64,000 nt of DNA, from positions 11,844 to 75,843 of the forward strand of contig JAJYED010000001.1 in NCBI GenBank assembly GCA_021790305.1, in the 5' to 3' direction. Origin of the DNA: Candidatus Micrarchaeota archaeon. GTDB taxonomy: Archaea; Micrarchaeota; Micrarchaeia; Micrarchaeales; CABMGC01. The notes under the pieces were generated by a model. That model was not told the DNA's origin. It saw only the letters and a program-made list of their open reading frames with translations, and made no database searches. A program made the position numbers and the translations under genes. This document shows positions 6,303 through 53,746 of the stretch, piece by piece (the stretch's first letter is position 1; every line of letters starts with the position of its first letter).

Positions 6303-6339
6303 TTAAATAAGCCGGAGAAGATTTAAAATCCCTTTACTC

Positions 6340-7908: not shown

Positions 7909-7910
7909 AC

Positions 7911-10751: not shown

Positions 10752-10788
10752 ATAATCCATTTATAAATTATACAGGAGCAACTATATC

Positions 10789-12060: not shown

Positions 12061-12067
12061 TGGTAGT

Positions 12068-13228: not shown

Positions 13229-14874
13229 TGCGCATGAAATTAAGAATAACATTCATATTGTTCTTCCTTGCTGCAATTGCGACATATTCTGTTGCAAGTG
13301 CTGCTACACCAAGCACAAATAATAACTTCATAACATCATCGAGTATACTTAACAACTGGATCGTGATAGTCGCTGAGGGGGTCATTGCAAGCTTCATGAT
13401 TGTTTCAGTATACTACATGATAGGGTACCTGTTTAACAGATCAAGCATCAAGGCAGCAGCAACTTCTGAATTAGGCAAGCTTATCGGCATACTGATAGTA
13501 TCGATGGTAATACTGGGGGTATTTTATTCGTTCGGCGCTTCCCTGCTCTTTACAAATGCTGCTGGACAAGCTCAGATAGCGACCTTGTGCAACCAACTTC
13601 AGAATTCAAGGATAAATTTCATAAGCACTAATTCGCTAGTGCCTTCTCCTTCACCATCTAGTACGATATGCACTGATATAATAGACCCGAAAGCAGGCAC
13701 GAATATAGGCCAGGCTACGCGTTACATAGATTATGGTCTAAGCTCAGTATACATAATAGAGGACAATCTTACAAACCAATCTGCCCAGTCGTTAAACTCT
13801 GTTTATATATTCAGTACAATGCTGGGCTTCCTCAGGAAATACTCGATAACCGATTCGGTGTGTTTTCCGGCTCCGCCCTGTCTCATACCGGGGGAACTCT
13901 TCCAGACAGGCGTCGAACTCTCTTCCACCCCGTATGCCGGCTATCAAATAGGAAATACTCTCCCAAATGTGATAGGGACAGAGGCAAATGTCATATTCTA
14001 CTTCTTCCTGTTCCAACTTATACTGATACTTCTGATGCTGCTGATATGGCCGTATCTGCTGGCTGCCGGCTTGCTGCTTGAGACAAATATGTTTACCAGA
14101 AGACTTGGAGGCCTATTGATAGCAATAGTGATATCAAGCATGCTGGTATACCCGACAGTATTCCTGTTCGAGTACTCCTCCTTAAATAATCTGCAGAATG
14201 TACAGCCATATGGTGCATCATCAATACCCAGCCTTGCCCTGTGCGGCGCCCCTGCAGGAGGCACTCCTCTTGGCAAAACCCCATTGCTAAACGGCCAGCA
14301 GGCAAGCGGTGTTTATTGCTACACTGATGCAAAAGAGCTGCCATTAAGCTACATATACAAAGCAACTCTTCCGGATACGTTTACCGATATGGTTCCAAAT
14401 AACTATAAGAGCTACAGCCCGAATCTACTGGTTCCGGCATGCCCTAATAAAAATGCGCAAGGTTTATGCTTCTTCCAGAAGAATCTGAACTTTTTCGTAA
14501 TGCCAAAGATAAAAGACATACTTAACTTGTACTTTACGTGGCCAGCAGGCGGAAGTCTCCTTTCATTCGAAGCTCCATTCGTCGTGCCAGCTACTGCTCT
14601 GGTAAAGAACGTGGTAGACGCAATAGCTTCATTGACCAGCCTTCTCTCAGGCAATTTCATAGGGTCATTTCCATCAAGCATACTTGATTATTACGTGGAT
14701 CCTGCACATACTGTTGCAGCTATACTCGCATTGATTAACGTATATGCAATAGATGCTGTTGTAGGATTCATATTGCCGGTATTAAATGTACTTATATTGA
14801 TATCATCAATATTAGAGATCTCAAGGCTGCTGGGAGGTGAAAGGACCATACTTGGCCTAGAAAAATTCGTGTGA
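13228..14874 (+). CDS. Polytopic membrane protein, array paralog 3 (largest, with an extra extracytoplasmic insert)
   Basis: The ATG overlaps the upstream TGA (TGATG), and GGAGG lies upstream. It has the signal peptide MKLRITFILFFLAAIATYSVASA. Motifs are RRLGGLLIAIVISSMLVYP and ATSELGKLIG. Confidence 0.65.
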   Translation: MRMKLRITFILFFLAAIATYSVASAATPSTNNNFITSSSILNNWIVIVAEGVIASFMIVSVYYMIGYLFNRSSIKAAATSELGKLIGILIVSMVILGVFYSFGASLLFTNAAGQAQIATLCNQLQNSRINFISTNSLVPSPSPSSTICTDIIDPKAGTNIGQATRYIDYGLSSVYIIEDNLTNQSAQSLNSVYIFSTMLGFLRKYSITDSVCFPAPPCLIPGELFQTGVELSSTPYAGYQIGNTLPNVIGTEANVIFYFFLFQLILILLMLLIWPYLLAAGLLLETNMFTRRLGGLLIAIVISSMLVYPTVFLFEYSSLNNLQNVQPYGASSIPSLALCGAPAGGTPLGKTPLLNGQQASGVYCYTDAKELPLSYIYKATLPDTFTDMVPNNYKSYSPNLLVPACPNKNAQGLCFFQKNLNFFVMPKIKDILNLYFTWPAGGSLLSFEAPFVVPATALVKNVVDAIASLTSLLSGNFIGSFPSSILDYYVDPAHTVAAILALINVYAIDAVVGFILPVLNVLILISSILEISRLLGGERTILGLEKFV

Positions 14875-16049
14875 TTTTTGTGAGAAAATACGCCCTGTTG
14901 ATAATATTCGTCTCCGCCCTACTTCCGGTATTGCATGCTTCATCTGTTCCATTCCCCAGCGGCCAGAATATCTTCGACTGTACTACCCTTTTCACAAACA
15001 ATGTGAACGGCAATTCTCTGGTAAGTCCTGCTCTTGCTTCCTACTCATCTTACACCTCACTCCTAAAAATATCCTTATTGGTTGCATTTGCAATGATCAT
15101 GTTGATGGGATTAGTATATGTCCTTGGAATAGCATCAAAGTGGGACATGCTCAAGAAATTCGCAGCTAACGAATACTTGGAAGATTTCTTAAGCATAATT
15201 ATAATATTAATAGTAATCGGCGGCATAGCTATATTCAACAGCGCATCTGTAACTGTTGCAAATACGTTTACAGTTAATCCAAGTTCTTCTACCACTTCAA
15301 TTCTGACTCCTGCCTCTTTATACACATCCTTATGCAGTAATATGTTTAGCAACATGATTGAACCAGGGCTTCTAACAGAAATATGGATAGAGATTAACAG
15401 GATCCTAATCGGATTGATTGGCGGATTGAAAATCGATCTGGCTCCTAGCAATTTCGGGATAATCTTCGTTCCTCTTGCAGGATTCTCTTTGGTAAACCAA
15501 CTGCTATGGATTGAAGGCGGCGCATCTTTCTTCATGCTTTCAGCCGGTGCAATGATGATAGTGCTGCTTTTTGTGATATACTACCTGTTCCCGCTCTTCC
15601 TGTACCTTGGCATTGCACTCCGTGCCTTCCCATGGACGAGGGCTGCAGGAGGGGCATTCATAGCGCTATTTGTTGCCTTCTATATATTCTTCCCTGCAAT
15701 TATGTACCAGTTCTCAACAAGCTTCTCTACCTTTACCAATCCCAGCAGCAGTGCAGTTGGTTTATGTTCTTCAGGAAAAACAAACTGCGTCAGCAGTCCA
15801 GAAAGCCTTGCTACCAGCTCTTTCAAGGCATATCTGGGCGTGCTTAACCTTGACGTTGGATACACGGCATATACTAATATATACTACTTTTCTTACATCT
15901 TCCTGTATCTTGCACTTAATGTATTCGGCTTAATACTGGCTCTGCTTATATCGTATGAGGTACTTGGCATAGTCGGAAGACTTCTAGGAGCCAGTTCTGT
16001 CAAAGGAAGCAACATGTTCAAGAAGATTCTCTCTCCAAATAAACCATGA
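14871..16049 (+). CDS. Polytopic membrane protein, array paralog 4
   Basis: The GTG start overlaps the upstream stop by 4 nt (GTGA). Motifs are RAAGGAFIALFVAFYIFFP and AANEYLEDFLS. Confidence 0.62.
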   Translation: MIFVRKYALLIIFVSALLPVLHASSVPFPSGQNIFDCTTLFTNNVNGNSLVSPALASYSSYTSLLKISLLVAFAMIMLMGLVYVLGIASKWDMLKKFAANEYLEDFLSIIIILIVIGGIAIFNSASVTVANTFTVNPSSSTTSILTPASLYTSLCSNMFSNMIEPGLLTEIWIEINRILIGLIGGLKIDLAPSNFGIIFVPLAGFSLVNQLLWIEGGASFFMLSAGAMMIVLLFVIYYLFPLFLYLGIALRAFPWTRAAGGAFIALFVAFYIFFPAIMYQFSTSFSTFTNPSSSAVGLCSSGKTNCVSSPESLATSSFKAYLGVLNLDVGYTAYTNIYYFSYIFLYLALNVFGLILALLISYEVLGIVGRLLGASSVKGSNMFKKILSPNKP

Positions 16050-17131
16050 GGTTGTATATGATGAATGCTTCGGTTGGAAATTTTCCAGGATTCCTCTTTT
16101 CAGCAGTCTGTTCATTAAATAACATATTATCCTCTCCATATACTTTCTGGTTTCCGATAGTAGTAGTAGTGGCAATTGCAGTGATACTCATTGCAATATT
16201 GATAGGTATGTTGTCTCCGTTGCTTGGTAGAAACAATCTTGTACCCTGGGCAAGACTAAAAGCATACGAGGAGGTAGCAACAATAATATTCGCAATAATA
16301 TTTCTAAGTTTCTCCTCAATGCTCTGCGCAATAAATCCGATACCTGCTCTAAACTCAATCGGATTAGTGCCTACCGAATGCTCCTCATCATCAGCTGTCC
16401 CAATAAATAACATCTGGGGAATAGCAGTATGCAATATGTATACATTTAATACTCATGTCTCAGAGATTCTAACTGCAGGATACTGGCTAAATTTCCTTAG
16501 CGATGTAGGTCCAAAGTTTGGGTTTAGCCCTAATTTTGGCGGTGTTGGCATATCTGCTTCACTGTCACTATCTACAGGTCCGGAGAATCTGTATCTGTCG
16601 CCTATGTACTTCCTCATAATAGGAGAGATCATGGTATCAATGCTGCAGGTCATTCTGTTATCTTCTGCCCCCATATTATTCTCATTTCTAATAGGCATAG
16701 GTCTGATAGCAAGGTCATTTGGTATAACAAGAACCTTTGGAAACGCCATGATAGCTCTTGGAATAGGAATAGGGTTCATCTACCCACTACTCGTAACCAT
16801 AAGCTATGGGTTCATAAACACTACATTTACCAATGTGCTAAATGCCGCAGGAACATCCTTTGTCAATCTTTTTAAAGATTTCACGCTGAGCTTCTTGCTT
16901 TCATTGGTTTATCCTCTTTTTGTCAGCTCTTCGATTTATTGGGCAGCCGTAGCTGTAGTGCAGATCTGGAATATCCTAAGCCTGTTAATATTCCTTGCAG
17001 CCATAGTTGTAATGGGTCTGGTGTTCATACCTATGCTAAACTTCATGATACTCGATGCTTTTGTAAGGGACTTTTCAAGCTCGCTCGGACAGCAGGTATC
17101 ATTTCTAGATATGTTAATCGGGGTAGTTTAG
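16046..17131 (+). CDS. Polytopic membrane protein, array paralog 5
   Basis: The ATG overlaps the upstream stop by 4 nt (ATGA). Motifs are RTFGNAMIALGIGIGFIYP and LKAYEEVATI. Confidence 0.62.
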   Translation: MRLYMMNASVGNFPGFLFSAVCSLNNILSSPYTFWFPIVVVVAIAVILIAILIGMLSPLLGRNNLVPWARLKAYEEVATIIFAIIFLSFSSMLCAINPIPALNSIGLVPTECSSSSAVPINNIWGIAVCNMYTFNTHVSEILTAGYWLNFLSDVGPKFGFSPNFGGVGISASLSLSTGPENLYLSPMYFLIIGEIMVSMLQVILLSSAPILFSFLIGIGLIARSFGITRTFGNAMIALGIGIGFIYPLLVTISYGFINTTFTNVLNAAGTSFVNLFKDFTLSFLLSLVYPLFVSSSIYWAAVAVVQIWNILSLLIFLAAIVVMGLVFIPMLNFMILDAFVRDFSSSLGQQVSFLDMLIGVV

Positions 17132-18226
17132 ATGAGAAAAGCAAGTGTATATCTGATAACTATCTTGTCCATACTACTAATCGGCGTGGCGAGCGCACAA
17201 TCAACAACATCCTCTGTCTGTAATACTGGAAGTGCTATACAATCAGCAGCTCCATGGTATTGCAGCCAGGTAAATACACAAGCCCAGAGCGTCTGGGTTC
17301 AATGGGCACCTCTTGCCATAACTGTTGCGTTATTCTCGTTCATGATAGGCGTTCTTATATTCATGGCTGGAATAGCCATGAAGAACAACACAGTCCGGAG
17401 TTTCGGAGTAGGTGAGCTGTATGAATCCATTGCGTCTATGCTGATTGTGGCAGGCTTCCTATTCATAACCGCAGTGCTTTTTGGTCTTATTCCATCGATT
17501 GTCACAGGCCCGATAAATCCATACAATACTTCGCTTAGCTACATAGCAACTACTATAAACACTACGAGCTCACTGGCATCAAGACTCTTCATAATAGGCT
17601 CGTTAGATGCATACTATGCAAGTATAAGCGTACAACTATACATCCCAGGAATTACGGATAACACCGAGGCTCCCACCCCTCTCTCTTCCAAACCATTTGG
17701 AATATTGATACTTCTATTCTACTGGCCGGCATGGGCACTTATGCAATTCATGCTGGATGCGCTAATTTCGCTTTATGCCCAATACTACTTTATCCTATTC
17801 TTCTTATACGCAGGCATACCTGTCTTTTTGATACCTGGCGTTATACTAAGGGCTTTCCTGCCGACCAGGGGGGTAGGAAGCATGATGATTGCAATAGCGA
17901 TCGGCTTCTTTTTGGTAATGCCTGTACTGTTCTCTGTTGCCTACTACTTTACCAATCTTGGCGCGTTAAAAGCGCTATCTAACACCTATTCTATACTAAC
18001 CCAGTATGGATCAGGCACAGGGGCGCAGGCAAATGCCCTTTCTCCTTCATCACCGCTTGTCCTTGCTGTTTCCAATTCCAGCAGTGTAATGGGTGGCTTC
18101 TGGCTATCCATATTATTCTTCCCAGCCATAATACTTGCAATAACCTACTCGGTAGTAGCTAACATCGCAAACCTTATCGGGGGAGCAGCAAAAGCAGGCA
18201 GCAGCAGGCTAAGAAGTCTGATATGA
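17132..18226 (+). CDS. Polytopic membrane protein, array paralog 6
   Basis: The ATG directly abuts the upstream TAG. It has the signal peptide MRKASVYLITILSILLIGVASAQS. Motifs are RGVGSMMIAIAIGFFLVMP and GVGELYESIAS. Confidence 0.65.
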   Translation: MRKASVYLITILSILLIGVASAQSTTSSVCNTGSAIQSAAPWYCSQVNTQAQSVWVQWAPLAITVALFSFMIGVLIFMAGIAMKNNTVRSFGVGELYESIASMLIVAGFLFITAVLFGLIPSIVTGPINPYNTSLSYIATTINTTSSLASRLFIIGSLDAYYASISVQLYIPGITDNTEAPTPLSSKPFGILILLFYWPAWALMQFMLDALISLYAQYYFILFFLYAGIPVFLIPGVILRAFLPTRGVGSMMIAIAIGFFLVMPVLFSVAYYFTNLGALKALSNTYSILTQYGSGTGAQANALSPSSPLVLAVSNSSSVMGGFWLSILFFPAIILAITYSVVANIANLIGGAAKAGSSRLRSLI

Positions 18227-22401: not shown

Positions 22402-23907
22402 ATGGGATTAATAAGGATACAGAATGTAATGAGCAATGAACTTGCAAAGCGCGTCTTCCTTAGCAGACCCCCTGAGCCTCCGCCTGAATTCCTTCTCAAC
22501 GACCCTACTGATTCAATATTCATAGGCATAACGAGAAGGTTCGGCGTGCCTCTTACATGGACATTCGCAACGCTGACAAACCCTCACATCTCAGTAGTGG
22601 GAATAACAGGAGCCGGTAAGTCCTTCTTTGTAAAGACCTTCCTGATAAGAGCGAGCTACGTATGGAATGCAAATGCAATCATAATAGACTGGGCAGGAGA
22701 GTACAAATCATGGGTGGCACAGAGCGGAGGCAAGATCGTTGCCCTGGGAAAGGGCGATTTCATAAACATAATGGATCTCGCAGGCATGAAACCTCTTGAC
22801 AGGGCAAAGCAGATAATGAATGCACTTGACATACTGACCGATATTACCAGCTTTGCGGAGCAGAGAAGACTTACGGCAGAGGCCATAGAGCAGACTTATG
22901 TGAATGCAGGCTTCCCTCTTACCCAGATTCCAAAGGATGGAAAGGATGCCCCTACTCTGAAGAACGTGACCGCGCTGCTGGAGGAGAAGCTTGGCGAAGG
23001 TAACTACGCATATCCTGCAGAGCTTGAGAATGCGATATACAGATTAAGGGAATTCTCAAGAGAAGGGGAAGACTACTTTGCAAGGAAGAGCACAGTCGAT
23101 CTTGACAAACTTATCACATCCGGACTTGTAGACCTTGACCTTTCCGGTCTTCCCGATGAGAGGTTCAGGGCGCTTGCAGGACTATTCATACTGCAGACAT
23201 TGAAGGAAAAGATGCGTTTTGAAGGATGGAGTCCTAGCAAGGGACTTAAGGCAATAATAGTGCTTGACGAGGCATGGAAGATAGCAAGCGATGAAAGGAG
23301 CGACGCAATCACTATAATTAGAGAAGGTAGGAAGTACCAATTCGGCCTCATAGTTGCATCGCAGAACCCTACTGATATAAACGAGGCAATATTCTCCAAC
23401 GTAGGCACATCAATAATACTAAGGATAAGGTTCGAGAAGTTCCTCGACTACCTGCAGGGATCCCTTGGCTTTACGGCTTTCATGAGAGATGAGATAAGCA
23501 GGTTCGGAGTAGGCCAGGCGGCCATAGACCTCTCATTCCAGACCTCTATAAAATTCCCATCAGTATTCATAATAGAGCATATAATCGGGGAGATGCCTCT
23601 GAATGTCTATGCCATAACTCTTGGTGATATACTTCAGGAAAGCGAGATGAACGATACGACCATACAAAAGGACTATTATCTGAAGAAGATGGACATAATG
23701 GCAAAGCTTGTAAGGACAAATGCAAGTATGGACACCATAAACAGCATAATATTCGACATGGATAAGGCAAACCGCTCCGTAGATGTCAAAGCACTTGCAG
23801 GCATACTCACAAAGAACAATATAAATCGTGAAGCCATAATACAATTCTTAAGGGAGGTTGGGATACCTGATAATATTATAAGCAGAGTGTTCGTATATAT
23901 GAGATGA
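22402..23907 (+). CDS. VirB4/TrbE/TraC-like P-loop ATPase (FtsK-HerA superfamily)
   Basis: Walker A VVGITGAGKSFF and Walker B IIVLDEAWKIA (the DEAW form typical of VirB4-type ATPases). REGRKYQFGLIVASQNPTDI matches the RK...ATQ..D sensor region. Confidence 0.72.
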   Translation: MGLIRIQNVMSNELAKRVFLSRPPEPPPEFLLNDPTDSIFIGITRRFGVPLTWTFATLTNPHISVVGITGAGKSFFVKTFLIRASYVWNANAIIIDWAGEYKSWVAQSGGKIVALGKGDFINIMDLAGMKPLDRAKQIMNALDILTDITSFAEQRRLTAEAIEQTYVNAGFPLTQIPKDGKDAPTLKNVTALLEEKLGEGNYAYPAELENAIYRLREFSREGEDYFARKSTVDLDKLITSGLVDLDLSGLPDERFRALAGLFILQTLKEKMRFEGWSPSKGLKAIIVLDEAWKIASDERSDAITIIREGRKYQFGLIVASQNPTDINEAIFSNVGTSIILRIRFEKFLDYLQGSLGFTAFMRDEISRFGVGQAAIDLSFQTSIKFPSVFIIEHIIGEMPLNVYAITLGDILQESEMNDTTIQKDYYLKKMDIMAKLVRTNASMDTINSIIFDMDKANRSVDVKALAGILTKNNINREAIIQFLREVGIPDNIISRVFVYMR

Positions 23908-37252: not shown

Positions 37253-38860
37253 TTACTCTGCAGCTTCATTGGTAAATATCAAAGGCGCAATGGCCTCGTC
37301 CACTTCCTCTCTTTGAACGGTATTTCCTCCTTCCAACTTTAGCTGAACTCCTATCGCTGCAAGTTGCGTTATAACAAGTTCGGACATGTCAGGATAATCG
37401 TTTTCATATCCTCTCATGACTGCCTTGTTTTTATCATTAAGTCGCTTCATTATCTCTTCATAATCATCGCTAATCTGTTTTACTACTCTCGAAGCATTGT
37501 CTCCTTCATTATAGGCGAGTACATTTGCCCCAAGCCTCTCATAAATGGGCTTTCCTGAGGAATCCCTGATATCATCAATGTCCCTCTGCATATCCCTTAT
37601 TTCATGCATGAACATAGGGACCTTGCTAACATTAAGCTCTTTCTCTTCTGCGAGTTTAGCTATCCTCTTGTTGGAATACGATCCTGCATCTCCTAGCTTC
37701 TCCACAAGTGCATCTATTGAGTTCTCATGAGCTTCGCGTGCTTCTTTATCATCAGGGAATACCCTGTCCAGGTTATCCTTCGTCTTCATAAGCAGATCTT
37801 TATAAGCACTTATTTCTATGAAAAGTTTTATGTTGGCATCAGACACCTCTGCAATATCTTCTGCTGTAATCTCATTCTTTTCCTTATCTTCCATATTATT
37901 CAGAACGCGATTGATCTCATCCATCCTCTTGTTCATATTTGCTTCCATAATGCTACGTTGCTTTATCATCTTTTCAGGACTATCAAGTTTTTCTAGCTCT
38001 AGTACTAGCGGTTGTTCCTCTTCAGGCTTGCGCTTAGCTCTGGTGCCACTTCCATTACTGCCATTTCCTCCTCCACCATTCTTCTCTGCGCTTGTTTCAT
38101 GCTTTTCAGAGCTTGCTTCTCTCTCTTCTTTTTGTTCTTGTTTACCGGAATCCTCATTTGCCCTAGAACCATAATGCCTATTAACTGCTTCTGTATACGA
38201 TGAATCAGGCCTGAGTTTTGGTCTTTCCCTTTGCTGTTTATTACTATCTGCATTATTATTCAGTTTCTCTGCCAATTCATCTATAATTGCAGCCTTCCTT
38301 ATAGTCTTCAGATCTTTTGCTATCTGTAACTGATCCTCCTTTCCATTATCCTGTGCCTTTCTCCCAGAACTTTTCTTAGTCGTTGTGCTAAAATCATGTA
38401 TCGCAGTTTCAAGTGCATAAGACGCTGTGTCTGGAGCAGAATCGGATAGTTCTCTAAGATCTGAGGTAAGTCTTGCAACCCTGCTCACTGCAGCCTCATA
38501 TGATTGCCCTTTCTCCTTTTTAATAAATTCAGTAAGCGCCTCTTTAAATTTGTCTGCAGGCATTTCTGAGAGCTTTTCCAAACCCCGATTGAATCTATCC
38601 TCAATACTTATCCTTTCCTTAACGCTTAGTTCACCCTTTCTGCTTGCATCTCCAACCTTAATCTTGAGTTCTTTCACCGTCTCTTCATAATAGTCGTGCC
38701 TTGCAGAAGTAGTGCCATCCTTCGACACTCCATTCTTGGAAAAGTGACTGCCATCCATGTGCTGTATAGAGCGTGATGCATCAGTGAAATCATTAAGCAG
38801 TGCGGATGCACCTGCTTCTTTCCTTGTGCTTTTATCTGAACTTTTATACGCAGTCGCCAT
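37253..38860 (-). CDS. 535-aa highly charged protein, paralog of the next gene (shared ~180-aa block at its C-terminus)
   Basis: E/K/D/S-rich and without a TM. The shared block begins ANIKLFIEISAYKDLLMKTKDNLDRVFPD. Confidence 0.55.
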   Translation of the reverse strand: MATAYKSSDKSTRKEAGASALLNDFTDASRSIQHMDGSHFSKNGVSKDGTTSARHDYYEETVKELKIKVGDASRKGELSVKERISIEDRFNRGLEKLSEMPADKFKEALTEFIKKEKGQSYEAAVSRVARLTSDLRELSDSAPDTASYALETAIHDFSTTTKKSSGRKAQDNGKEDQLQIAKDLKTIRKAAIIDELAEKLNNNADSNKQQRERPKLRPDSSYTEAVNRHYGSRANEDSGKQEQKEEREASSEKHETSAEKNGGGGNGSNGSGTRAKRKPEEEQPLVLELEKLDSPEKMIKQRSIMEANMNKRMDEINRVLNNMEDKEKNEITAEDIAEVSDANIKLFIEISAYKDLLMKTKDNLDRVFPDDKEAREAHENSIDALVEKLGDAGSYSNKRIAKLAEEKELNVSKVPMFMHEIRDMQRDIDDIRDSSGKPIYERLGANVLAYNEGDNASRVVKQISDDYEEIMKRLNDKNKAVMRGYENDYPDMSELVITQLAAIGVQLKLEGGNTVQREEVDEAIAPLIFTNEAAE

Positions 38861-39031: not shown

Positions 39032-40507
39032 CTAAAGTGACATATCCTGTTCAAAGTTCTGCTCTACCTTCATATTATTATCAGCCTTAACCCCGGTCTC
39101 CATAGTATTCTCAGCCTTAACCTCGGCCCTAACTTGATTAACCGTCATCTCATTAGCCTTTATACTATTTTCAGTCTCCATAGTATTCTCAGCCTTAACC
39201 GCGGTCTTCACATCATTCTTAGCCTCAGTACTAACTTCATTAACCGTCGTCTCAGCAGATATGCTACTTTCAGTCTTTATATCATTCTCAGCCTTAACCT
39301 CGGCCCTAATTTCATTAACCTTCATCTCATTGGCCTTTTTAATCTCATCCGCTTTCATCTCATCGGCCATTCTAAGCAATTCACTTAATGGCATAATCTC
39401 CTCTTTAGTAAGCGTAGGCATTATTCCTGTTCTTGCTGCTACAACAATTTCTGGCTTCTGAGAAGAAGATACTGCATTATTACTATCCGTGGGCTCTGTT
39501 ACCTCGACCATACCTGACCTAAGCAACCGGACAGTATCTATCGATTTATGTTTTTTAGAACCATTGCCATAAGCTGGAGCTTCCCTCTCTCTTTTATGTG
39601 GACTATCTTCAGTTGCATTTTCAGAAGAAAACTGCATTGTAATCTCTTCATCTTCAGATTTTTGATAGCTATCTGTGCGCTTCTGCACAAGTATATCATT
39701 AAGCTGTACCTCTATTACCGAAAGTTGCCTTATTATGTCGATTGAGAACATCTTTCCTCCAACAAGCGAAACCCTTCCCAATAACGCCTTGCTTTGCTCT
39801 GACAGTCTGTCCTCTATCTCTTTTTGGTCGTTAATTATGGCATCCTGAACAGAAGTCGGAGGTACAGCTCCAGCAAAGCGGACAAGATTAGAGCCAAGCC
39901 TTGCTGCCACGCTGTTTCCATTTTCATCTTTTATGCTTTTAATATCTGTGTTCAAACTCTTTATATCACTAGCTGAAATTGACAACGTGCCCAATTTCAT
40001 ACCTTTCTTTTCTCCAATAGCTTTCATAATGCCATTAGACTCTTTTGCTACATCCTTAATCTCCTTTAACAATTCATCTATGCTCTTCTCAATCTCAATC
40101 CTAGAAGCATTATCTACGTCAGGGAATTGGGTCTCAACTCCCTTCTTTGCATCGGTTAGGAAGTTCGTATAAGCATTCAGTTCTACGAAGAGCCTGATAT
40201 TAGCTAAGGAAATTGCCTTAAGATCCCCCTGGAATCTTTCCCCATCAGCTACATGTTTTCCATCTTTCAGGTCCGGCTTTTCTACCTTCAATATATGCTC
40301 TCCAAGCTTCATTACCTTTTCAGCCTTTTCATTCATACTTTTAAGAATGAATTCCTTCTGCCTTGCAAATCCTTCTACCGTATACTTATCAGAATCAGGT
40401 GAATGGCTTTCGTTGTTGCCTCTAACATGTTCCTTAAAACCTGCAGAAGTCTTAGTCCCATTATTAGCTCTGTTTTCCACAGCTTCCACTTTGGTTATCA
40501 TAATCAT
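39032..40507 (-). CDS. 491-aa charged protein, paralog of the previous gene (shared block near its N-terminus) with a repetitive C-terminus
   Basis: The shared block begins ANIRLFVELNAYTNFLTDAKKGVETQFPD. The C-terminal ~110 aa are degenerate repeats (VKAENTMET, EMKVNEIRAEVKAEN). Confidence 0.55.
   Translation of the reverse strand: MIMITKVEAVENRANNGTKTSAGFKEHVRGNNESHSPDSDKYTVEGFARQKEFILKSMNEKAEKVMKLGEHILKVEKPDLKDGKHVADGERFQGDLKAISLANIRLFVELNAYTNFLTDAKKGVETQFPDVDNASRIEIEKSIDELLKEIKDVAKESNGIMKAIGEKKGMKLGTLSISASDIKSLNTDIKSIKDENGNSVAARLGSNLVRFAGAVPPTSVQDAIINDQKEIEDRLSEQSKALLGRVSLVGGKMFSIDIIRQLSVIEVQLNDILVQKRTDSYQKSEDEEITMQFSSENATEDSPHKREREAPAYGNGSKKHKSIDTVRLLRSGMVEVTEPTDSNNAVSSSQKPEIVVAARTGIMPTLTKEEIMPLSELLRMADEMKADEIKKANEMKVNEIRAEVKAENDIKTESSISAETTVNEVSTEAKNDVKTAVKAENTMETENSIKANEMTVNQVRAEVKAENTMETGVKADNNMKVEQNFEQDMSL
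39060..39360 (-). repeat. In-frame imperfect tandem repeats inside the 491-aa gene
   Basis: A 52-nt block at 39107-39158 recurs at 39284-39335 (offset 177 nt, 4 mismatches). A 25-nt block CTCCATAGTATTCTCAGCCTTAACC at 39098-39122 recurs at 39176-39200 (offset 78 nt). Confidence 0.8.
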
Positions 40508-40558: not shown

Positions 40559-41065
40559 TTATCTGACGCTTAAAAAGCTTATCTGAGAGTGCATAGTCTT
40601 ACTCTTTCCTGGATCTCTAACAGTGTAAAGATAACTGACGGGTTCCTTTTTGGTTATATCTGCACGCAATACTAGGCAAGCTTTATTCTCAAAGTATGTG
40701 TTGCTTGCAAGAACAACTCCTCTACCTGGCAAGAGGACAGCTCTCTCTTCAGAAGGGAGCACTGAAAATTCATCCCACGATATCCTATAATTTTGGCCTT
40801 CGTTAGGATTAATTCTTACGTACTCCATGCTCTCAATTCCTATCTGCGATGTCAGTGCCCATCCTTTATTATACATCATACTCCTAAAGGCAGCATCATT
40901 CGCATAACAAAGACTTATCTGATCAGGAGTTGCAAGCAGGCGCCCTCTTTCACGCAATAAGTCCTTTAAATTACTCATATCAACAGGCATAACCTTTTCA
41001 GTAGACCTGAATACTTGCGGACATCTGCCTTCTAACGCCTTCATATTGCTAACCATAATTACCAC
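40559..41065 (-). CDS. ~170-aa family protein, member A (unknown function)
   Basis: Shares the ordered motifs ISLCYANDAAFRSMM, YVRINPNEG, VLPSEERAVL and VSYLYTV with members C, F and G. Confidence 0.55.
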   Translation of the reverse strand: MVIMVSNMKALEGRCPQVFRSTEKVMPVDMSNLKDLLRERGRLLATPDQISLCYANDAAFRSMMYNKGWALTSQIGIESMEYVRINPNEGQNYRISWDEFSVLPSEERAVLLPGRGVVLASNTYFENKACLVLRADITKKEPVSYLYTVRDPGKSKTMHSQISFLSVR

Positions 41066-41076
41066 ATTGAGCTTAT

Positions 41077-41580
41077 CTATCGTTTTGCACTTTTGATACC
41101 TTCATTTAGTATATCACTGTTAAGTTGTACATATGCGGCACGTGCAATGTATAACTTATTGCCAGAGGGACAATTAGCATCTCCAAATCTGACACAAACA
41201 TGCTCTGAATCCTTCCTAAAAACAGCCAATCTGTCTTTGGCAATTGTCCCACGTATCATTTTCCTGCTTACGTGTTCTAATGTTTCATTGCCTATCCTGT
41301 AATACCAATATGCGCCTTCAGGACAGTATCCTTGTCCTTTACGCGCAAGAATCCATCCGTCATATGGATTTACGCTATTGCAATATAGCATTATCGTGCT
41401 CCTTAATTCTAGATTATCGCTGTATTTCTGTACGAGCTCATCAAGCGTTGCAATTCTTGAATCTCTGGGCACATGCGGCGATATCTCTCTGCCTAAAAGT
41501 GAGGTATATCTCTCTGAAAGTCCTACATTCGGGACATCTTTAAAAACGCTTTTCTGCCGTCTTTCCAGTATGTGCTCCAT
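41077..41580 (-). CDS. ~170-aa family protein, member B (divergent)
   Basis: Same size and position in the array. Motifs are weaker (DELVQKYSDNLELRSTI, YYRIGNETL, ARAAYVQL). Confidence 0.5.
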   Translation of the reverse strand: MEHILERRQKSVFKDVPNVGLSERYTSLLGREISPHVPRDSRIATLDELVQKYSDNLELRSTIMLYCNSVNPYDGWILARKGQGYCPEGAYWYYRIGNETLEHVSRKMIRGTIAKDRLAVFRKDSEHVCVRFGDANCPSGNKLYIARAAYVQLNSDILNEGIKSAKR

Positions 41581-41590
41581 GCCTAATTAC

Positions 41591-42115
41591 CTATGCTCTA
41601 ACAATCATCCTTAATGCGTCCGCTAATCTGAAACTGTCATTTTCAGCAGTCGTCCTTACATATGCCACATGGGCTTTTCCGAAATAAGCTGTCGAATACG
41701 GTGATAGGAAAAGGCTTTTTCCCAGATCACAAACGCTACTGTCCTTATGTGTCTTTGATGTATCCATATTTACATATGCGACCATGGTATTATCATCTGC
41801 CTTCTGCACAAGCCCTCTCCTTTTAGGGTTAAGTATCCAGTAATCTGTAATATCAATATAGCAAAAGCCATCCTTGTTTATCTCTATAGTTCCAGATCTG
41901 CTGAACTTATTATCATTAACAATCAGAGTAGGGCCTGCTTTAATTAACATATTCCTTAAAGACTCGCTGGTTGCATAAGCCCTCAGAAACTCTCCGGATG
42001 TTGCAGGTGAACAACCTTCAGGTACAAGGCGCCATGCTTCAGAAGGTTCAGCCAGCCTTCTTGATATATATACTTCAAAAGCCGTTTTTTGCTGTTTTTG
42101 CATAGTTGCGTTCAT
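41591..42115 (-). CDS. ~170-aa family protein, member C
   Basis: Motifs EFLRAYATSESLRNML, TIEINKDGF and AHVAYVRT. Confidence 0.55.
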   Translation of the reverse strand: MNATMQKQQKTAFEVYISRRLAEPSEAWRLVPEGCSPATSGEFLRAYATSESLRNMLIKAGPTLIVNDNKFSRSGTIEINKDGFCYIDITDYWILNPKRRGLVQKADDNTMVAYVNMDTSKTHKDSSVCDLGKSLFLSPYSTAYFGKAHVAYVRTTAENDSFRLADALRMIVRA

Positions 42116-42145
42116 AATATATTCACCATTCTCTAACTATTCGGA

Positions 42146-42451
42146 CTACCTTTTAGGAAAAGGCAAATCAGTCCTGACGACAGCCTTAAATATAACCGAG
42201 CGATTCTCATCAACAAAAAGACCCTCTCCGTCTGAGGTATCGAAATGCGTTCCTCTCAACTCCTCCTTAAGCCTTGGACAAAGCGAAATGGCTTTTTCAG
42301 CTTCTTCTCTGCTGAACCTCCTGAGACCCATACTGTCGAATACCTTATTAACCTCCCTTATATCAGAAGCGTTTATTGCAGGGGCTATTACTACCCTGCT
42401 GTTTCCTATCCGTACCTCCTTATACTCCATTATTTTTGTTATCATTGTCAA
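42146..42451 (-). CDS. 101-aa protein, possibly a truncated or divergent member of the same family
   Basis: Contains SREEAEKAISLCPRLKEELRG, which resembles the family's first motif. It lacks the C-terminal half. Confidence 0.4.
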   Translation of the reverse strand: MTMITKIMEYKEVRIGNSRVVIAPAINASDIREVNKVFDSMGLRRFSREEAEKAISLCPRLKEELRGTHFDTSDGEGLFVDENRSVIFKAVVRTDLPFPKR

Positions 42452-44042: not shown

Positions 44043-44115
44043 GGGGAGTTAGGCTAGCTTGGTAGGCTTCAAGCTTTGGGAGCTTGCGACCCGTGTTCAA
44101 ATCACGGACTCCCCA
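44043..44115 (+). tRNA. tRNA-Pro (anticodon UGG)
   Basis: Manual cloverleaf. The acceptor GGGGAGT pairs with ACTCCCC. The anticodon arm is CAAGC-TTTGGGA-GCTTG. The T arm is CCGTG-TTCAAAT-CACGG and the discriminator is A. No CCA is encoded, and a T-run follows. Confidence 0.9.
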
Positions 44116-44256
44116 GATTTTTTCATTGGTGTTATGCCTAACCACTATTTCTGATATATCTCTAGGATTTGACGTGTAATGCTATTCGAAGTGCAGATGA
44201 ATATTCAGCCAGAACCAGTTATAACACATAATCTTACATAATTATAATCTACCAAA

Positions 44257-45177
44257 TTACGAAGGAAACTTTTTGACAGTTTCTATTATTGGCTTACTAT
44301 CAAGATAGTCAAGAGTTATCTTTTCTAACAAACTGAAACGCCATTTTTGTATTTTTGGTTTACCTATAATCCTTGCTGCTGCCCATATAGTTTTTGCAAG
44401 CATAAAATCATCTTGATATTCTGATAATTCAGGATAGCCATTTCCAGAATAGATATTGTCCATTGCCTTAAAATAAGTATCAAACTGCTTTTTGGTAAAA
44501 CCATAAGGCCTTATGCTCTCATAATTGCCTTCTTTCGGAAAGAGGTATATCTGATAAATATTGCCGACCAAGTCATAACCGGCATATCCATTAAATACAT
44601 ATCCAAAATCAATTATCCCTTTAGGAAGAATATTGTGTGGGTTCAAATCTCCGTGTGTCAAAACAACTGGAAACGCAGAAACTCGCTTTGTTATTTTATT
44701 GAAAGCTTCAATAAGTTCATCTTTAAATTGAGGAAAGTCGTCTAAAATGTAATTCATATAAATTCCGCAGTAAAAATCTTTATCATGTTTTTTAGTGGTT
44801 GCTGTGGATAACTGCGCCTCAGCAAATTGTCTAGTTAGACTTAAAAATGTAGAGAAATTACGATTAGAAATGTTGCCATACTTCTTGTAATCTTCCGAGA
44901 AAAGGTAGGTTAAAAGCGAAGTTCCTACTGACTTCTCAATATAAAAGTATTGGCCGTCTATTTCGCCTTCACGCAAAACCTCGGGAATAGGAAATCCATG
45001 AGCCAATAGCTGTCTATGTATCTGTAACTCCTTTCGAATAAGATCATGTTTGCCTATTCTAAGAAAAGCATCCCTGCTGCTATAAATTGAGACAGGATCG
45101 TATACTCTTGTCCTTAGAAATTTAAATGTCTGATCTTCTATTATCAGTCGTTTTGGTGTGGTCTTTTCTTTTAGCAT
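44257..45177 (-). CDS. Aminoglycoside/choline-kinase-like phosphotransferase (APH family fold)
   Basis: Catalytic loop LTHGDLNPHNIL followed by IIDFGY (a DFG-like motif). The gene is visibly more AT-rich than its neighbours. Confidence 0.68.
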   Translation of the reverse strand: MLKEKTTPKRLIIEDQTFKFLRTRVYDPVSIYSSRDAFLRIGKHDLIRKELQIHRQLLAHGFPIPEVLREGEIDGQYFYIEKSVGTSLLTYLFSEDYKKYGNISNRNFSTFLSLTRQFAEAQLSTATTKKHDKDFYCGIYMNYILDDFPQFKDELIEAFNKITKRVSAFPVVLTHGDLNPHNILPKGIIDFGYVFNGYAGYDLVGNIYQIYLFPKEGNYESIRPYGFTKKQFDTYFKAMDNIYSGNGYPELSEYQDDFMLAKTIWAAARIIGKPKIQKWRFSLLEKITLDYLDSKPIIETVKKFPS

Positions 45178-45278
45178 TGTATTATCACTTTAACGCATTG
45201 CCCTTTTACATTTTTAATAATTCTCTAATGATAAAGTATCAAGATAGGCTTAAATATCACGTATAACTAAATAAGATT

Positions 45279-45584
45279 ATGGCAGAGGGGTTAGTCACAA
45301 AAAAGCAGGAGGCATCAGAAGCCGCAGGGATGAAGCGTCTTTTCAAGGCTGCAAGGCGAATAGCCACTACCAGTGCTGAAAAAACAGCTGTGCTTGGTCC
45401 GACAATGCAGAATAACCTGACGATACTGAGTACCTGTGGATGCGGAAGCTGTCCCAGGTGTGCCGTAAATGCAGTTGTAGTTACTGCAAATACTGTAATG
45501 GCTTTAGTGGGACTTAGACGAAAAGAAAAAAGGCCAGAGCATGTTGGGCATGACCACTCTGCACATGACCACAAGCATGAGTAA
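45279..45584 (+). CDS. Small Cys-cluster and His-rich-tail protein (possible metal binding)
   Basis: Contains CGCGSCPRC and the C-terminal HVGHDHSAHDHKHE. It competes with an antisense ORF (45257-45574), and I prefer this strand on composition. Confidence 0.4.
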   Translation: MAEGLVTKKQEASEAAGMKRLFKAARRIATTSAEKTAVLGPTMQNNLTILSTCGCGSCPRCAVNAVVVTANTVMALVGLRRKEKRPEHVGHDHSAHDHKHE

Positions 45585-45647
45585 AACCGATATGCCCTTC
45601 AGAATACTCAACAGTATTCAGGCATTTACGTAGCTGCCTTTTCCACA

Positions 45648-46403: not shown

Positions 46404-46934
46404 TCAGTGCCTTAGCAGAATAGAGAACATCTCATCAAGCTTTCCGTCATTCTTAATGCCAAGTACTGTGTGCTCTTTTATCGCAGGACTTGCATCTCCG
46501 TCTATATCAAAACGGTATCCCTTCAGTTTTGCGAAGCGGTCGCTGTACACTGAGAGTATCATTGGCATATATCCTTTGTACACGAAGACGGTATCCTCAA
46601 CTCCATAAGCATTCTTGGGCACATCCCTGCCAATCTGCAAAAGTTCCCCTCTTCTGCTGAATGTACAGTACTCGCTGAACTCATCGATGCCGAAGCCATT
46701 AATATAAAAGCTGTCTCCTTTCAGGCTGTTCCTGAATCTCAGAGCCATTCTTGAGCTTCCGTATGCTCTTGCCAGTATCTCCTTATAATCTACGGACCTG
46801 AGGTCATGTTCAACAAGAAGCTTCAACGACTCAGTGCAGTTGGCATGGGCATGGATCTTAAATATTCCTGATTGTGATATCTCCCTGAATTCCAGACTTT
46901 TACTGCCAATGCCGCTCTTTATCATGCTACCCAT
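46404..46934 (-). CDS. ~170-aa family protein, member E (divergent)
   Basis: 176 aa. It carries KEILARAYGSSRMALRF and SFYINGFGI in the same order as the family motifs. Confidence 0.45.
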   Translation of the reverse strand: MGSMIKSGIGSKSLEFREISQSGIFKIHAHANCTESLKLLVEHDLRSVDYKEILARAYGSSRMALRFRNSLKGDSFYINGFGIDEFSEYCTFSRRGELLQIGRDVPKNAYGVEDTVFVYKGYMPMILSVYSDRFAKLKGYRFDIDGDASPAIKEHTVLGIKNDGKLDEMFSILLRH

Positions 46935-46948
46935 AATGACCCTGCTAA

Positions 46949-47479
46949 TTAACTTCTCCTGAATCTTGCCAAGTCCCTGCCGTCATGATCCAATGCACCT
47001 TTGTCCACCACATAAGCTATCTTCGCCTCTACTGCTGAAGGATAATGCCATGTACTTATGTTCAGGCAGCCCCCTCCGAACATACTGTCTATTGTAACTG
47101 CACCTCCCCCTTTGTTATGGAAGGACCTTCTCTCTTCAGGCAGTTTGTAGAACTTAGACCTCGATACAGTTCTGAACGAATAATCATCAAGTATCTCCTT
47201 GTATCCTGCAGTATCAAGGCCATTATGTCTGACCCATACGCTGTCATTATGCAGCATCTTCCTGAAAGGTCGGGAGTGCACATATGCCTCTACCGCTTCT
47301 GCAAGGCTTATCTGCCTGCGACCATCAGGCACGAGGAATTGCATCATTCTACTATCTACTGCCCTATCCGTTATCCCTATTTTATAAGTATCATTTCCAA
47401 TAACAAAGCTGCAGTATTCGTGCTTCTCCACTGCAAATCTCGCATCTGCCTTAAACTGACGAGTCAAGGTGGTCATCAT
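46949..47479 (-). CDS. ~170-aa family protein, member F
   Basis: Motifs EAVEAYVHSRPFRKML, YKLPEERRSF and AKIAYVVD. Confidence 0.55.
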   Translation of the reverse strand: MMTTLTRQFKADARFAVEKHEYCSFVIGNDTYKIGITDRAVDSRMMQFLVPDGRRQISLAEAVEAYVHSRPFRKMLHNDSVWVRHNGLDTAGYKEILDDYSFRTVSRSKFYKLPEERRSFHNKGGGAVTIDSMFGGGCLNISTWHYPSAVEAKIAYVVDKGALDHDGRDLARFRRS

Positions 47480-48829: not shown

Positions 48830-51611
<2,782 letters not shown>

Positions 51612-51750: not shown

Positions 51751-51811
51751 AGCTATCAATTAAAATATTAGATTTTACATATTTATTACTTTCTATTCAT
51801 ATAATCCATGC

Positions 51812-51886
51812 GGGTCCGTAACTCAGTTTGGCTAGAGTGGAAGGCTTTTAACCTTTAAGTCGTGGGTTCAAATCCCACCGGGCCCG
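51812..51886 (+). tRNA. tRNA-Lys (anticodon UUU)
   Basis: Manual cloverleaf. The acceptor GGGTCCG pairs with CGGGCCC. The D arm is ACTC/GAGT. The anticodon arm is GAAGG-CTTTTAA-CCTTT. The T arm is GTGGG-TTCAAAT-CCCAC and the discriminator is G. Confidence 0.9.
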
Positions 51887-51994
51887 TAGACATACGACAG
51901 TTCTTTCACAGAATAAAACGAGTAAAATTGCAGATTAAATTTATTAATCAGAGTAATCTACCTCCTTTGAGATATTAAACATGCAAGTGTTACT

Positions 51995-52594
51995 ATGGAT
52001 AATGCAAAAGTCTTCAGGGAAAGACCACAAAAGCTAATGTTCTCTGAAAGAGAGGTTTTTGTAGATGATATACAAAGAGTCATGCCTGCAGGGTACAGGC
52101 AGGTATATGTAAAGGAGATAGCATCACTATTCTTCCACAACGCCGAATTCAGAGAGGAACTTAGGACTGCAGGAGCCGTATGGACTGCAGATAAGGGGAC
52201 CAAGAACATGGGAGTATTCAGAATAAACGCAGAAGGCTTGTTTCTGCCTACGAATAAGGAGGAGGTAAGGTCGCTACCAGAAGGGCACTATTCTGCCCAC
52301 TATCCAGGGATCGGACAGGTGATAGTAAGGTGTTACAATTGCTATGACAAAATCGGAATGTATATAGACGCGGAATACAAACCGTCTAAAACAGCCAAAG
52401 TTGCATATGTAAAAGACGAAAACGCTAAGCCTGACCATCAAAATAAAACGACAGTAGCTATACCTGCGGAAGAGATAAATGCCGTAAAGGAATCCCTTAA
52501 GGCAGTTGAAGCGTCAATCAAAAGGATGCCTCATACAAGTGAACTGATTGTATTCATAAGCAATGTAAAGGAACTTTTACGAGATAGAACCTAA
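51995..52594 (+). CDS. ~170-aa family protein, member G (with a C-terminal helical extension)
   Basis: Motifs KEIASLFFHNAEFREEL, VFRINAEGL, RSLPEGHYSA and AKVAYVKD. Confidence 0.55.
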   Translation: MDNAKVFRERPQKLMFSEREVFVDDIQRVMPAGYRQVYVKEIASLFFHNAEFREELRTAGAVWTADKGTKNMGVFRINAEGLFLPTNKEEVRSLPEGHYSAHYPGIGQVIVRCYNCYDKIGMYIDAEYKPSKTAKVAYVKDENAKPDHQNKTTVAIPAEEINAVKESLKAVEASIKRMPHTSELIVFISNVKELLRDRT

Positions 52595-52655
52595 CAAAAA
52601 CCTAACTTTTCAGAAAAGGGTTTAAATTCCAATCACTTATCTTAATTGTGATTAT

Positions 52656-53546
52656 TTGGGAAAGACTCTTGAGACAAAGAAGAAGATACTCGAACTTCTT
52701 GAAAATAAGAAGATGACAATTACTGAGCTTAGCAAGGAGCTAGGTCTATCAAAAGCTACGGTTAGCCAGCATATAGATGAACTGACAAGAGTGCACGCGG
52801 TGGAGAAAGTAGACTCGGAATACTTCAAGAAACTAAAATACTACAAGACGACCCCTAATTACTCTGCAATGTTCGCAAAGGCTATAGGGGTAGTAATTGT
52901 ACTTGGAATAGTGGCATATGCAATATACTCTTATGCGAGTATACCCTTGCATTCAAATACTAATAATGTAAGCAACAAGACAGGCTTAATTACAGCGTCT
53001 GTAACGACAGCATCATATGTTAATTCATCTGCAAACGCTACGGTAACTCCGGGGCAGATATCTTCAGCATACTCATGCATCTTCCTTAATTATCATATGA
53101 GTGGAAGCATAGTAAGCGAAAGCGGCTTTTCAGCATACACCCTGAACTATACTGTCGGCAACATGACAAAAAATGTCACCGACTATGTAATAAGCAGGGG
53201 ATCTTCAGGCAGCTTCAGGCTTGCAGAGAACATAACGCAGACGCTTTCAGAACCACAAGGATTCAACAGCACTAGGACACATTACTACCTGCTAAGGTAC
53301 AACAATAGTATAACTTCATTCCAACCGACCGGAGTAAATATAACATTCAGTCCAAAGGTCTTCCAGGCAGCAAACGGCAGCATAAACACTACGGCATACG
53401 TAAGAATCGCTGCTAATGCCACATATGGAACATACTGGATAAACTTTGACGGACCATGTGGCGGAGGAATAGGCCCTGAACTGCTGACTGTGGGAAGCAA
53501 GCCATACAATGGCACACTCCACGAGCCAGTCAACATATTCGGCTGA
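52656..53546 (+). CDS. Membrane-tethered ArsR-type wHTH protein with a sequon-rich extracellular domain
   Basis: TTG start and an HTH (MTITELSKELGLSKATVSQHIDELTRVHAVEKV). One TM follows (AIGVVIVLGIVAYAIYSYA), then a ~190-aa ectodomain with more than 12 N-x-S/T sequons. Confidence 0.6.
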   Translation: MGKTLETKKKILELLENKKMTITELSKELGLSKATVSQHIDELTRVHAVEKVDSEYFKKLKYYKTTPNYSAMFAKAIGVVIVLGIVAYAIYSYASIPLHSNTNNVSNKTGLITASVTTASYVNSSANATVTPGQISSAYSCIFLNYHMSGSIVSESGFSAYTLNYTVGNMTKNVTDYVISRGSSGSFRLAENITQTLSEPQGFNSTRTHYYLLRYNNSITSFQPTGVNITFSPKVFQAANGSINTTAYVRIAANATYGTYWINFDGPCGGGIGPELLTVGSKPYNGTLHEPVNIFG

Positions 53547-53629
53547 ATGCCTGCAGAAGCAAATCTGCAGGATTCATCTGGAACAGCAGCTAACAGCAAA
53601 CATTAAATACTTTATTGTCTTAATTATTC

Positions 53630-53746
53630 TGTCAAACGGCCATAGGAATAGGGAAACGCCCGAACCCATCCCGAACTCGGAAGCTAAGCCTGTTCACGAT
53701 ATGAAATACTGCTCGTAAGAGTGGGAAAGCATATTGCTGTTTGGCA
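53630..53746 (+). rRNA. rrf: 5S rRNA (stand-alone)
   Basis: Contains the universal CCCATCCCGAACTCGGAAGCTAAGC core. The terminal helix pairs GTCAAACGGC with GCTGTTTGGC perfectly, counting G-U pairs. No 16S or 23S rRNA is in the window. Confidence 0.9.

Follow-up and report, generated by a model that had tools for sequence, protein, structure and literature searches.

Archaea of the DPANN group are already known to carry diversity-generating retroelements (DGRs) whose targets have a C-type-lectin-like (CLec) fold. In archaeal DGR variable proteins, an internal variable region is followed by a C-terminal tail, and some homologues occur without a DGR (Handa et al. 2016, PMC5006420). The DPANN literature links such targets to cell-cell attachment (PMC6349945, PMC7443923). 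Here, we describe a family of small proteins, unannotated in the databases searched, which is encoded in several copies on 64,000 nucleotides of a Candidatus Micrarchaeota archaeon (GCA_021790305.1, contig JAJYED010000001.1, positions 11,844 to 75,843 of the forward strand). This whole stretch is referred to as the window.

An initial annotation of the window had grouped seven open reading frames (ORFs), A to G, into one multi-copy family that it did not recognise. Profile comparisons place A, B, C, F, and G in the family as certain members and E as a probable one, and two distant relatives lie in DGR cassettes. On balance, the window probably encodes a hard-wired repertoire of small, soluble, single-domain ligand binders with a lectin fold, comprising five (probably six) old paralogs. 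The copies are read as a fixed binding set because relatives hypermutate the same domain with a retroelement. The family as a whole would bind ligands, and the paralogs would differ in their fixed ligand specificity.

Membership and distribution of the family

All seven ORFs were present where the initial annotation had placed them (Table 1), and all the motif strings that it had quoted were found in their translations. The gene starts of A and D were taken from calls in related contigs. BLASTP between the paralogs gave F-G as the sole significant pair (E 3.5e-6), with A-G (E 0.83) and C-F (E 2.5) marginal. Since pairwise BLASTP supported F-G alone, profile methods were used. The expected pairwise similarity was thus limited to one pair, and it was the profiles that linked A, B, C, F, and G.

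Subfamily alignments were built from the orthologs found in two word-indexed homolog searches and from syntenic contigs. The hhalign probabilities between the subfamily profiles were 98.7% for F-G, 93% for C-F, 92.7% for A-G, and 71% for A-F, and B matched a profile of A, C, F, and G only at 84% over 125 collinear columns. A second profile was made from 106 distant representatives, none of them from the window lineage. Against this distant-only profile, hhalign gave 99.9% for G (E 1e-35; hmmsearch 8e-48), 99.9% for F (E 2e-33), 99.4% for A (E 2e-21), 99.1% for C (E 7e-19), and 98.0% for B (E 1.5e-13), of which the profile contained no sequences. Seven unrelated window proteins used as controls gave P = 0.2-0.8. 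The distant sequences had been recruited with a profile containing A, B, C, F, and G, which leaves the independence of this test incomplete. Despite this caveat, the family holds together and its controls are clean.

ORF E scored 43.6% against the distant-only profile (P 2.4e-4, 107 collinear columns) and was linked to the family by two intermediates, P0174 (BLASTP E 9e-9) and P0143 (E 1e-5), both of which match the family profile in the library-wide search. The E orthologs rank directly below the true members in hmmsearch with the distant-only profile, and E is probably a divergent member. ORF D had no demonstrable relation to the distant-only profile (0.7%, P 0.08). It was considered as a 'mini' member on a collinear low-stringency alignment and was not accepted at this P value. 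No further window ORF scored better than E = 3.9 in hmmsearch with the same profile. The grouping of seven ORFs into one family therefore stands for A, B, C, F, and G, probably for E, and is unsupported for D.

Other claims of the initial annotation were borne out. It had seen neither a transmembrane segment nor a signal peptide, and the maximum 19-residue Kyte-Doolittle mean is at most 0.78 in A to G. The family it had not recognised is a true paralog family, and none of the seven ORFs has a Pfam or NCBIfam match. Its assumption of a small genome is reasonable for a lineage of Candidatus Micrarchaeota metagenome-assembled genomes (MAGs).

An exhaustive HMMER search with a 22-sequence alignment against 1.84 billion representatives returned 163 clusters at E <= 1e-3, and 93 of these also passed E <= 1e-10. 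The contexts are archaeal and chromosomal wherever they can be read, and the closest genomes carrying the family are labelled Candidatus Micrarchaeota. Orthologs of G with 73-77% identity occur in three Candidatus Micrarchaeota MAGs that are GTDB species representatives, and the A orthologs P0004-P0009 are 57-75% identical to A. Scans of 117 members against Pfam and PHROGs gave no recurrent family, and the family profile had 0 matches at E <= 10 among the PDB sequences. The word-indexed searches yielded close orthologs only, a third one adding none. A related-locus search of the JGI metagenomes and IMG/VR gave no new loci, and the literature held nothing specific on the family or on DGRs in Micrarchaeota.

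Longer members (P0101, P0108, P0112-P0114, and others) add unannotated sequence without a Pfam domain, and an apparent domain fusion in P0147 was rejected as a BACON-repeat false positive. P0108 (L020:16-1509) has 497 aa, with an N-terminal family domain, one transmembrane helix, and a long, low-complexity tail rich in Q, N, and H. On its 2.7-kb contig it adjoins a gene for an SLT lytic transglycosylase. The family domain may occur outside archaea.

Relatives diversified by a retroelement and the predicted fold

The distant member P0056 is encoded on a 132-kb archaeal contig (ENA ERZ25039587 contig_114432, hereafter L033), three genes upstream of a reverse transcriptase (RT). It has 203 aa, is of the G type, and carries a C-terminal helical tail. 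A variable region at 6320-6410 within P0056 (aa 107-137) is repeated at 6850-6940 as a non-coding template copy just upstream of the RT. The two copies form a direct repeat of 91 nt with 20 mismatches, and 20/20 of these fall on template adenines (16 A-to-G, 4 A-to-T). With A at 26/91 template bases, the chance of this is about 1e-11. A 52-aa ORF at 6822-6980 is the template repeat read as protein. The RT (RVT_1 E 2e-16, with IGNLTSQ and YVDD motifs) lies at 6980-8066 and was called as two overlapping ORFs, possibly through a frameshift or an assembly error. The cassette spans 6001-8066 with no Avd-like gene evident, and it is a textbook DGR.

The same order of gene, template repeat, and RT is found around P0054 at 1036-2422 of contig VFSW01157351.1 (GCA_009712145.1, hereafter L035), where an ATP-grasp (RimK-like) gene lies upstream. 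Its repeat has 8 adenine mismatches and 2 others. With a similarity that extends over only about 42 nt and two mismatches at bases other than adenine, this DGR may be a decaying element. P0054 and P0056 are about 51% identical in a three-sequence alignment and are separate representatives in a library clustered at 50%. Both were retrieved by the exhaustive family search (about 2e-25 and 3e-25, respectively), and both carry all the family motifs. The mutated stretch of P0056 ends exactly at the most conserved strand of the family, '(A/K)-R/K-V-A-Y-V'. In at least two distant lineages, the family domain serves as a DGR variable protein, in which error-prone reverse transcription of the template repeat would rewrite about 30 codons just upstream of the 'VAYV' strand. 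The rewritten stretch would therefore mark the ligand-binding surface.

The fold was predicted for G and F with AlphaFold2. The G model had a mean predicted local distance difference test score (pLDDT) of 80.5, with residues 11-140 above 90, and the F model, made from a deep alignment, had a pLDDT of 86.1 and a predicted template modelling score of 0.80. Both contain the secondary-structure elements in the same order. In a Foldseek search of the PDB with the F model, ranks 1-10 were all C-type lectin-like domains (CTLDs), with DEC-205, DCIR, SPL-1, SPL-2, rhodocetin, Ly49C, and CL-K1 among the neighbours (probability 0.16-0.90, template modelling (TM) score 0.27-0.50, E 0.02-0.6). From rank 11, the probability was mostly 0.01-0.04 and at most 0.07. 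The G model gave sub-threshold matches in BFVD to a BZLF2-like protein (probability 0.80), which we take to be a C-type lectin-like homologue of gp42, and to a DUF1566 phage protein (TM score 0.45 normalised to the target). These structural matches are consistent and not formally significant, and the domain most likely adopts a CLec fold. Such a domain would serve as a general ligand-binding scaffold.

The family motif 'P-x-G-[YF]-R-x-A-T-x-x-E' resembles the 'GWRLPTxxE' of Lcl_C/FGE-type domains. Membership in Lcl_C/DUF1566 was examined with eight real sequences, seven of them plasmid-borne and one the aligned part of PDB chain 8q4e. It was rejected at an hhalign P of 0.5 and kept as a fold-level analogy. 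An Lcl_C consensus written around the 'WRLPT' motif, which Pfam scored as Lcl_C at 145 bits, found no match in a phage tblastn search.

Since the CLec fold can be catalytic (PMC5006420), the domain might be an enzyme of this superfamily, comparable to formylglycine-generating enzyme (FGE) or sulfoxide synthase, with the paralogs as isozymes. Polar positions R35, E41, R53, R99, H102, and Y138 are conserved at 64-80%, which would speak for catalysis. We consider this explanation quite improbable, as no column is invariant across the family, no cysteine is conserved (maximum frequency 0.19 in well-occupied columns), and FGE-sulfatase, like Lectin_C and Lcl_C, is absent from the Pfam matches listed for the 117 members (E <= 1, best 25 of 35 families). 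DGR mutagenesis of the equivalent surface also argues for binding over catalysis.

The copies in the window, their evolution, and their neighbours

The variable region of P0056 was transferred to the window paralogs via alignment A5 (Table 1). Within it, G aa 111-120 form the ten-residue block of the domain that varies most across the family, with an entropy of 3.51 bits and the lowest occupancy. The window paralogs share 12% identity in the equivalent segment versus 21% in the remainder of the domain (Fisher p 4e-4, over pairs that are not independent). Among orthologs at 70-85% identity, conservation of the segment equals or exceeds that of the domain remainder (0.82 vs. 0.71 for G).

A tblastn search with the L033 RT found no match in the window or in the syntenic contigs with their 10-kb flanks, and sensitive blastn with each family gene detected no template-like repeat in the 64 kb or the related contigs. 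Across eight same-species assemblies, A to G are 98.9-100% identical, with four distinct substitutions (A P104S, E S47P, F N29D, and F H145Y) that do not cluster in the variable-region-equivalent segments. F H145Y is the only one inside such a segment, and its recurrence as an identical change in three assemblies does not resemble hypermutation. No evidence from the window and the related contigs supports a DGR-driven set. DGRs in general are known to have remote targets, and the family domain is a DGR target in relatives, so the copies might still be served in trans by an RT and a template repeat outside the window. Without an RT or template-like repeat in the sequences searched, with near-invariant copies whose only in-segment change is recurrent, and with orthologs that conserve the segment, this is very improbable. 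The 64 kb of the window contain no DGR, and in the preferred reading of a fixed repertoire the binding surface would be fixed in old paralogs, which differ most in the segment equivalent to the DGR-rewritten one.

The age of the copies was estimated from a rough neighbour-joining tree, in which each window paralog groups with its own distant relatives instead of with the other window copies; the duplications are therefore old. In the window the tandem cluster consists of four genes, D-C-B-A; the related contigs L010 and L011 lack C and have three. At the corresponding site of the chromosome, the more distant genome L021 carries a cluster of different composition. D is the first cluster gene in L009, L010, and L011 as well, and a 106-aa gene, whose similarity to D was not compared, occupies its position in L021.

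Against relatives at a synonymous divergence (dS) of about 0.35-1.8, the ratio of nonsynonymous to synonymous substitution rates (dN/dS) is 0.10-0.46 for the family copies and 0.003-0.11 for annotated neighbour genes. It is highest in A, B, and C (0.20-0.43 for A) and lowest in E and G, the 0.15-0.16 of G being the lowest among the certain members. Gene-wide positive selection was not found, all values being below 0.52, and the copies are under relaxed purifying selection. They are faster-evolving than the annotated genes around them, with a gene-wide dN/dS below 1.

The genes are tandem, multi-copy, and fast-evolving, they belong to a symbiont, and the cluster contains three or four of them among relatives. 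Such features could suggest polymorphic toxin/immunity genes or secreted effectors, which is what the initial annotation had proposed. That proposal is scarcely credible in view of the other results. Pfam, NCBIfam, and PHROGs reveal no toxin, immunity, or trafficking domain, the proteins carry no secretion signal or transmembrane segment, and the genes do not alternate in toxin-immunity pairs. In addition, dN/dS stays below 1, the genes do not vary within the species, and every paralog is ancient, with distant orthologs of its own. The expected linkage to a secretion-like locus was not seen either. This locus presumably comprises the genes from the T2SSE-type ATPase through the HerA/VirB4-like ATPase (Table 1), and the ATPase genes are 16-32 kb away from the family genes. 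Distant members adjoin ribosomal-protein genes instead of secretion-type genes.

Table 1. Positions of the family genes, their segments equivalent to the P0056 variable region, and other features of the window
Feature	Position	Strand	Description
A	40559..41056	-	165 aa; ORF extends to GTG at 41065
B	41077..41580	-	167 aa; divergent family member
C	41591..42115	-	174 aa; longest insertion in the variable-region-equivalent segment
D	42146..42445	-	99 aa; first gene of tandem cluster; position conserved, membership not demonstrable
E	46404..46934	-	176 aa; tandem with F; probable, highly divergent member
F	46949..47479	-	176 aa; certain member
G	51995..52594	+	199 aa; widely conserved type; C-terminal helical hairpin at aa ~158-198
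A segment	40634-40723		aa 112-141
B segment	41140-41208		aa 125-147
C segment	41669-41797		aa 107-149
F segment	47021-47107		aa 125-153
G segment	52310..52399	+	aa 106-135
Acidic protein p535	37253-38860	-	535 aa; downstream of D-C-B-A, co-directional
Acidic protein p491	39032-40507	-	491 aa; directly downstream of D-C-B-A, co-directional
T2SSE-type secretion/pilus ATPase	6340-7908		region 6340-9113 with unannotated 400-aa neighbour
Eight genes	10005-18226		co-directional, without Pfam match
HerA/VirB4/TraG-like ATPase	22402-23907
Variable stretch	44043-45600		DUF2666/tRNA-Pro to superoxide dismutase
APH-family kinase gene	44257-45177		intact in window
Cys/His-rich ORF	45279-45584	+	101 aa
2-Oxoacid:ferredoxin oxidoreductase beta subunit	50703-51611		without intein
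G neighbourhood	51811-53745		tRNA-Lys 108 nt upstream of G, 5S rRNA ~1 kb downstream

The window is part of an archaeal chromosome, with tRNA-Pro, tRNA-Lys, 5S rRNA, and genes for ribosomal proteins L1 and L10, S6e, eIF2-gamma, a Trm5/TYW2 methyltransferase, a CDC48-type ATPase, superoxide dismutase, and 2-oxoacid:ferredoxin oxidoreductase. Near-identical contigs exist in at least 8 assemblies, including GCA_027333945.1 and GCA_027333765.1.

Members of the G type or single-copy type lie directly beside translation genes in five syntenic contexts. Besides the RNA genes around G in the window, the member in L017 is immediately upstream of the L3 operon, that in L022 upstream of L30/L15, that in L034 downstream of S11, and that in L033 adjoins L15e. 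The G type could therefore have a lineage-specific housekeeping role connected with the translation apparatus, with the other copies as relaxed or neofunctionalised duplicates and the DGR association as secondary. The dN/dS of G, lowest of the certain members, would fit this explanation, as would the mildly basic isoelectric point (pI) of all window copies (8.4-9.3). We regard it as unlikely and rate it lower because a hypermutated binding surface, as in P0056, does not fit a conserved ribosomal partner. The adjoining ribosomal genes differ each time and are divergent in L033, so that they are not generally co-transcribed; genes of this type are densely packed in reduced genomes; and no similarity to a known ribosome-associated family was found.

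The two acidic proteins downstream of the cluster (pI about 5.2) have in common a 175-aa domain (31% identity, E 1e-21), whose position differs between them. Pfam matched neither protein, and p535 has no PDB sequence match. They are fast-evolving (dN/dS 0.27-0.51) and occur in one or two copies in relatives. The gaps along D-C-B-A-p491 are 10-51 nt (51 nt from A to p491), followed by 171 nt before p535 and 21 nt before a thermopsin-like gene. Because these genes are co-directional with short gaps, a shared operon of D-C-B-A, p491, p535, and the thermopsin-like gene is suggested, in which the acidic proteins are probable partners of the cluster. The arrangement of cluster and acidic genes is kept in L009-L011 and L021.

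Some further observations were made between and beside the family genes. The stretch from DUF2666/tRNA-Pro to superoxide dismutase is variable among the close relatives L001-L009. In several assemblies, the APH-family kinase gene is broken up into two ORFs, of 137 aa and 166 aa, other assemblies carry extra HAD-hydrolase and 271-aa genes there, and L009 has CYTH, NUDIX, and phage-type integrase genes, which suggests an integration hotspot. At its end lies a conserved ORF of 101 aa, the core of which is rich in Cys and the tail in His (...HVGHDHSAHDHKHE). This ORF has a dN/dS of 0.10-0.17 and no Pfam match, overlaps a 105-aa ORF on the opposite strand, and may encode a metal-binding protein. 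The 2-oxoacid:ferredoxin oxidoreductase beta subunit contains a LAGLIDADG intein in the distant relative L017 (2670-4679), which the window copy lacks.

Weighing of the readings and comparison with known systems

Several results weigh against a fixed set of lectin-fold binders. For the fold, no Foldseek match of F reached E <= 0.001 (0 matches; TM score <=0.5, root-mean-square deviation 8-13 Å), and the search of the PDB with G returned noise only, with no CTLD in the top 50. No sequence-level link between the family and any known CLec family was found, and the family has neither conserved cysteines nor a Ca-binding motif. The DGR was present in only 2 of about 8 distinct contexts examined, and the identity comparison among the paralogs rests on the non-independent pairs mentioned above. 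The lack of a signal peptide or transmembrane segment leaves no visible export route for a surface or host-contact role, and the housekeeping genes around the widely conserved G type could point to a cellular ligand that is conserved rather than variable. As to the cysteines, prokaryotic and DGR CLec proteins are likewise not known to have the disulfides of animal CTLDs, and their absence therefore does not exclude the fold.

The repertoire of fixed binders remains the reading we prefer. Of the roles proposed in the initial annotation, host interaction or recognition receives real support, from the predicted CLec-like fold and from the two distant members that are DGR variable proteins. A broader proposal is more tentative, and we think that it may well not hold: DPANN archaea would diversify one recognition scaffold in two modes, by a DGR acting on a single gene or by a germline array of old paralogs, each conserved and differing from the others in that binding segment, possibly for the intracellular recognition of host-derived or viral molecules. 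Because export signals are missing, the proteins could recognise molecules inside the cell rather than act as surface adhesins, which, if true, would be uncommon for a lectin fold in archaea.

DPANN archaea are host-dependent, and proteins by which they recognise host, virus, or partner molecules are barely known. A family without a Pfam entry (163 representative clusters) here gains a structural and mechanistic handle, with a putative binding surface pinpointed by the DGR of its relatives and testable targets in the equivalent segments of G, F, A, C, and B. It also makes it possible to compare, in a natural setting, how one module is diversified by a retroelement and by paralogs. A Pfam-style family definition would improve both the annotation of Micrarchaeota and the target catalogues of DGR surveys. 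What is new in comparison with the described systems is the paralog expansion without a DGR, which is a modest twist.

The closest described proteins are AvpA and the other archaeal DGR proteins of Nanoarchaeota, Woesearchaeota, and Pacearchaeota. Like these, the present family consists of small single-domain DPANN proteins with a predicted CLec-type scaffold, in which an internal variable region just before the last conserved beta-strand is followed by a tail of 46-66 residues, and some homologues are linked to a DGR and others are not. Unlike them, all seven window proteins lack the motifs GxxVVVYAH, HPxxxPFxG, and RFxGV in a regular-expression search. Sequence similarity is not detectable, the CLec structural match is weaker, and the family has grown to 5-6 paralogs in a single genome without a DGR.

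DGR targets of the FGE/DUF1566 type share with P0056 and P0054 the adenine-specific transfer from template to variable region, onto a putative binding surface in the C-terminal part of the domain. The order of motifs is also alike, 'P-x-G-[YF]-R-x-A-T-x-x-E ... W-T ... V-A-Y-V' in the family corresponding to 'GWRLPTxxE ... YWSS ... VRCVR', a parallel without statistical support (hhalign P 0.5). However, the present domain is not found at the end of a larger receptor-binding protein, has no signal peptide or lipobox, and is unmutagenised in the window copies. Lcl_C/DUF1566 (PF07603) is likewise a prokaryotic CLec-like binding module of similar size, but its solved representative 8q4e was not among the top Foldseek matches. 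The animal CTLDs (DEC-205, DCIR, CL-K1, Ly49, and snaclecs) come closest to the F model in structure, at 7-14% identity, whereas the present family has no conserved disulfides or Ca/EPN/QPD sites, has extra beta-hairpins, and is of a cytoplasmic type. In the known CLec-fold variable proteins, the last beta-strand and the homing element lie at the position that matches the end of the mutated stretch in P0056.

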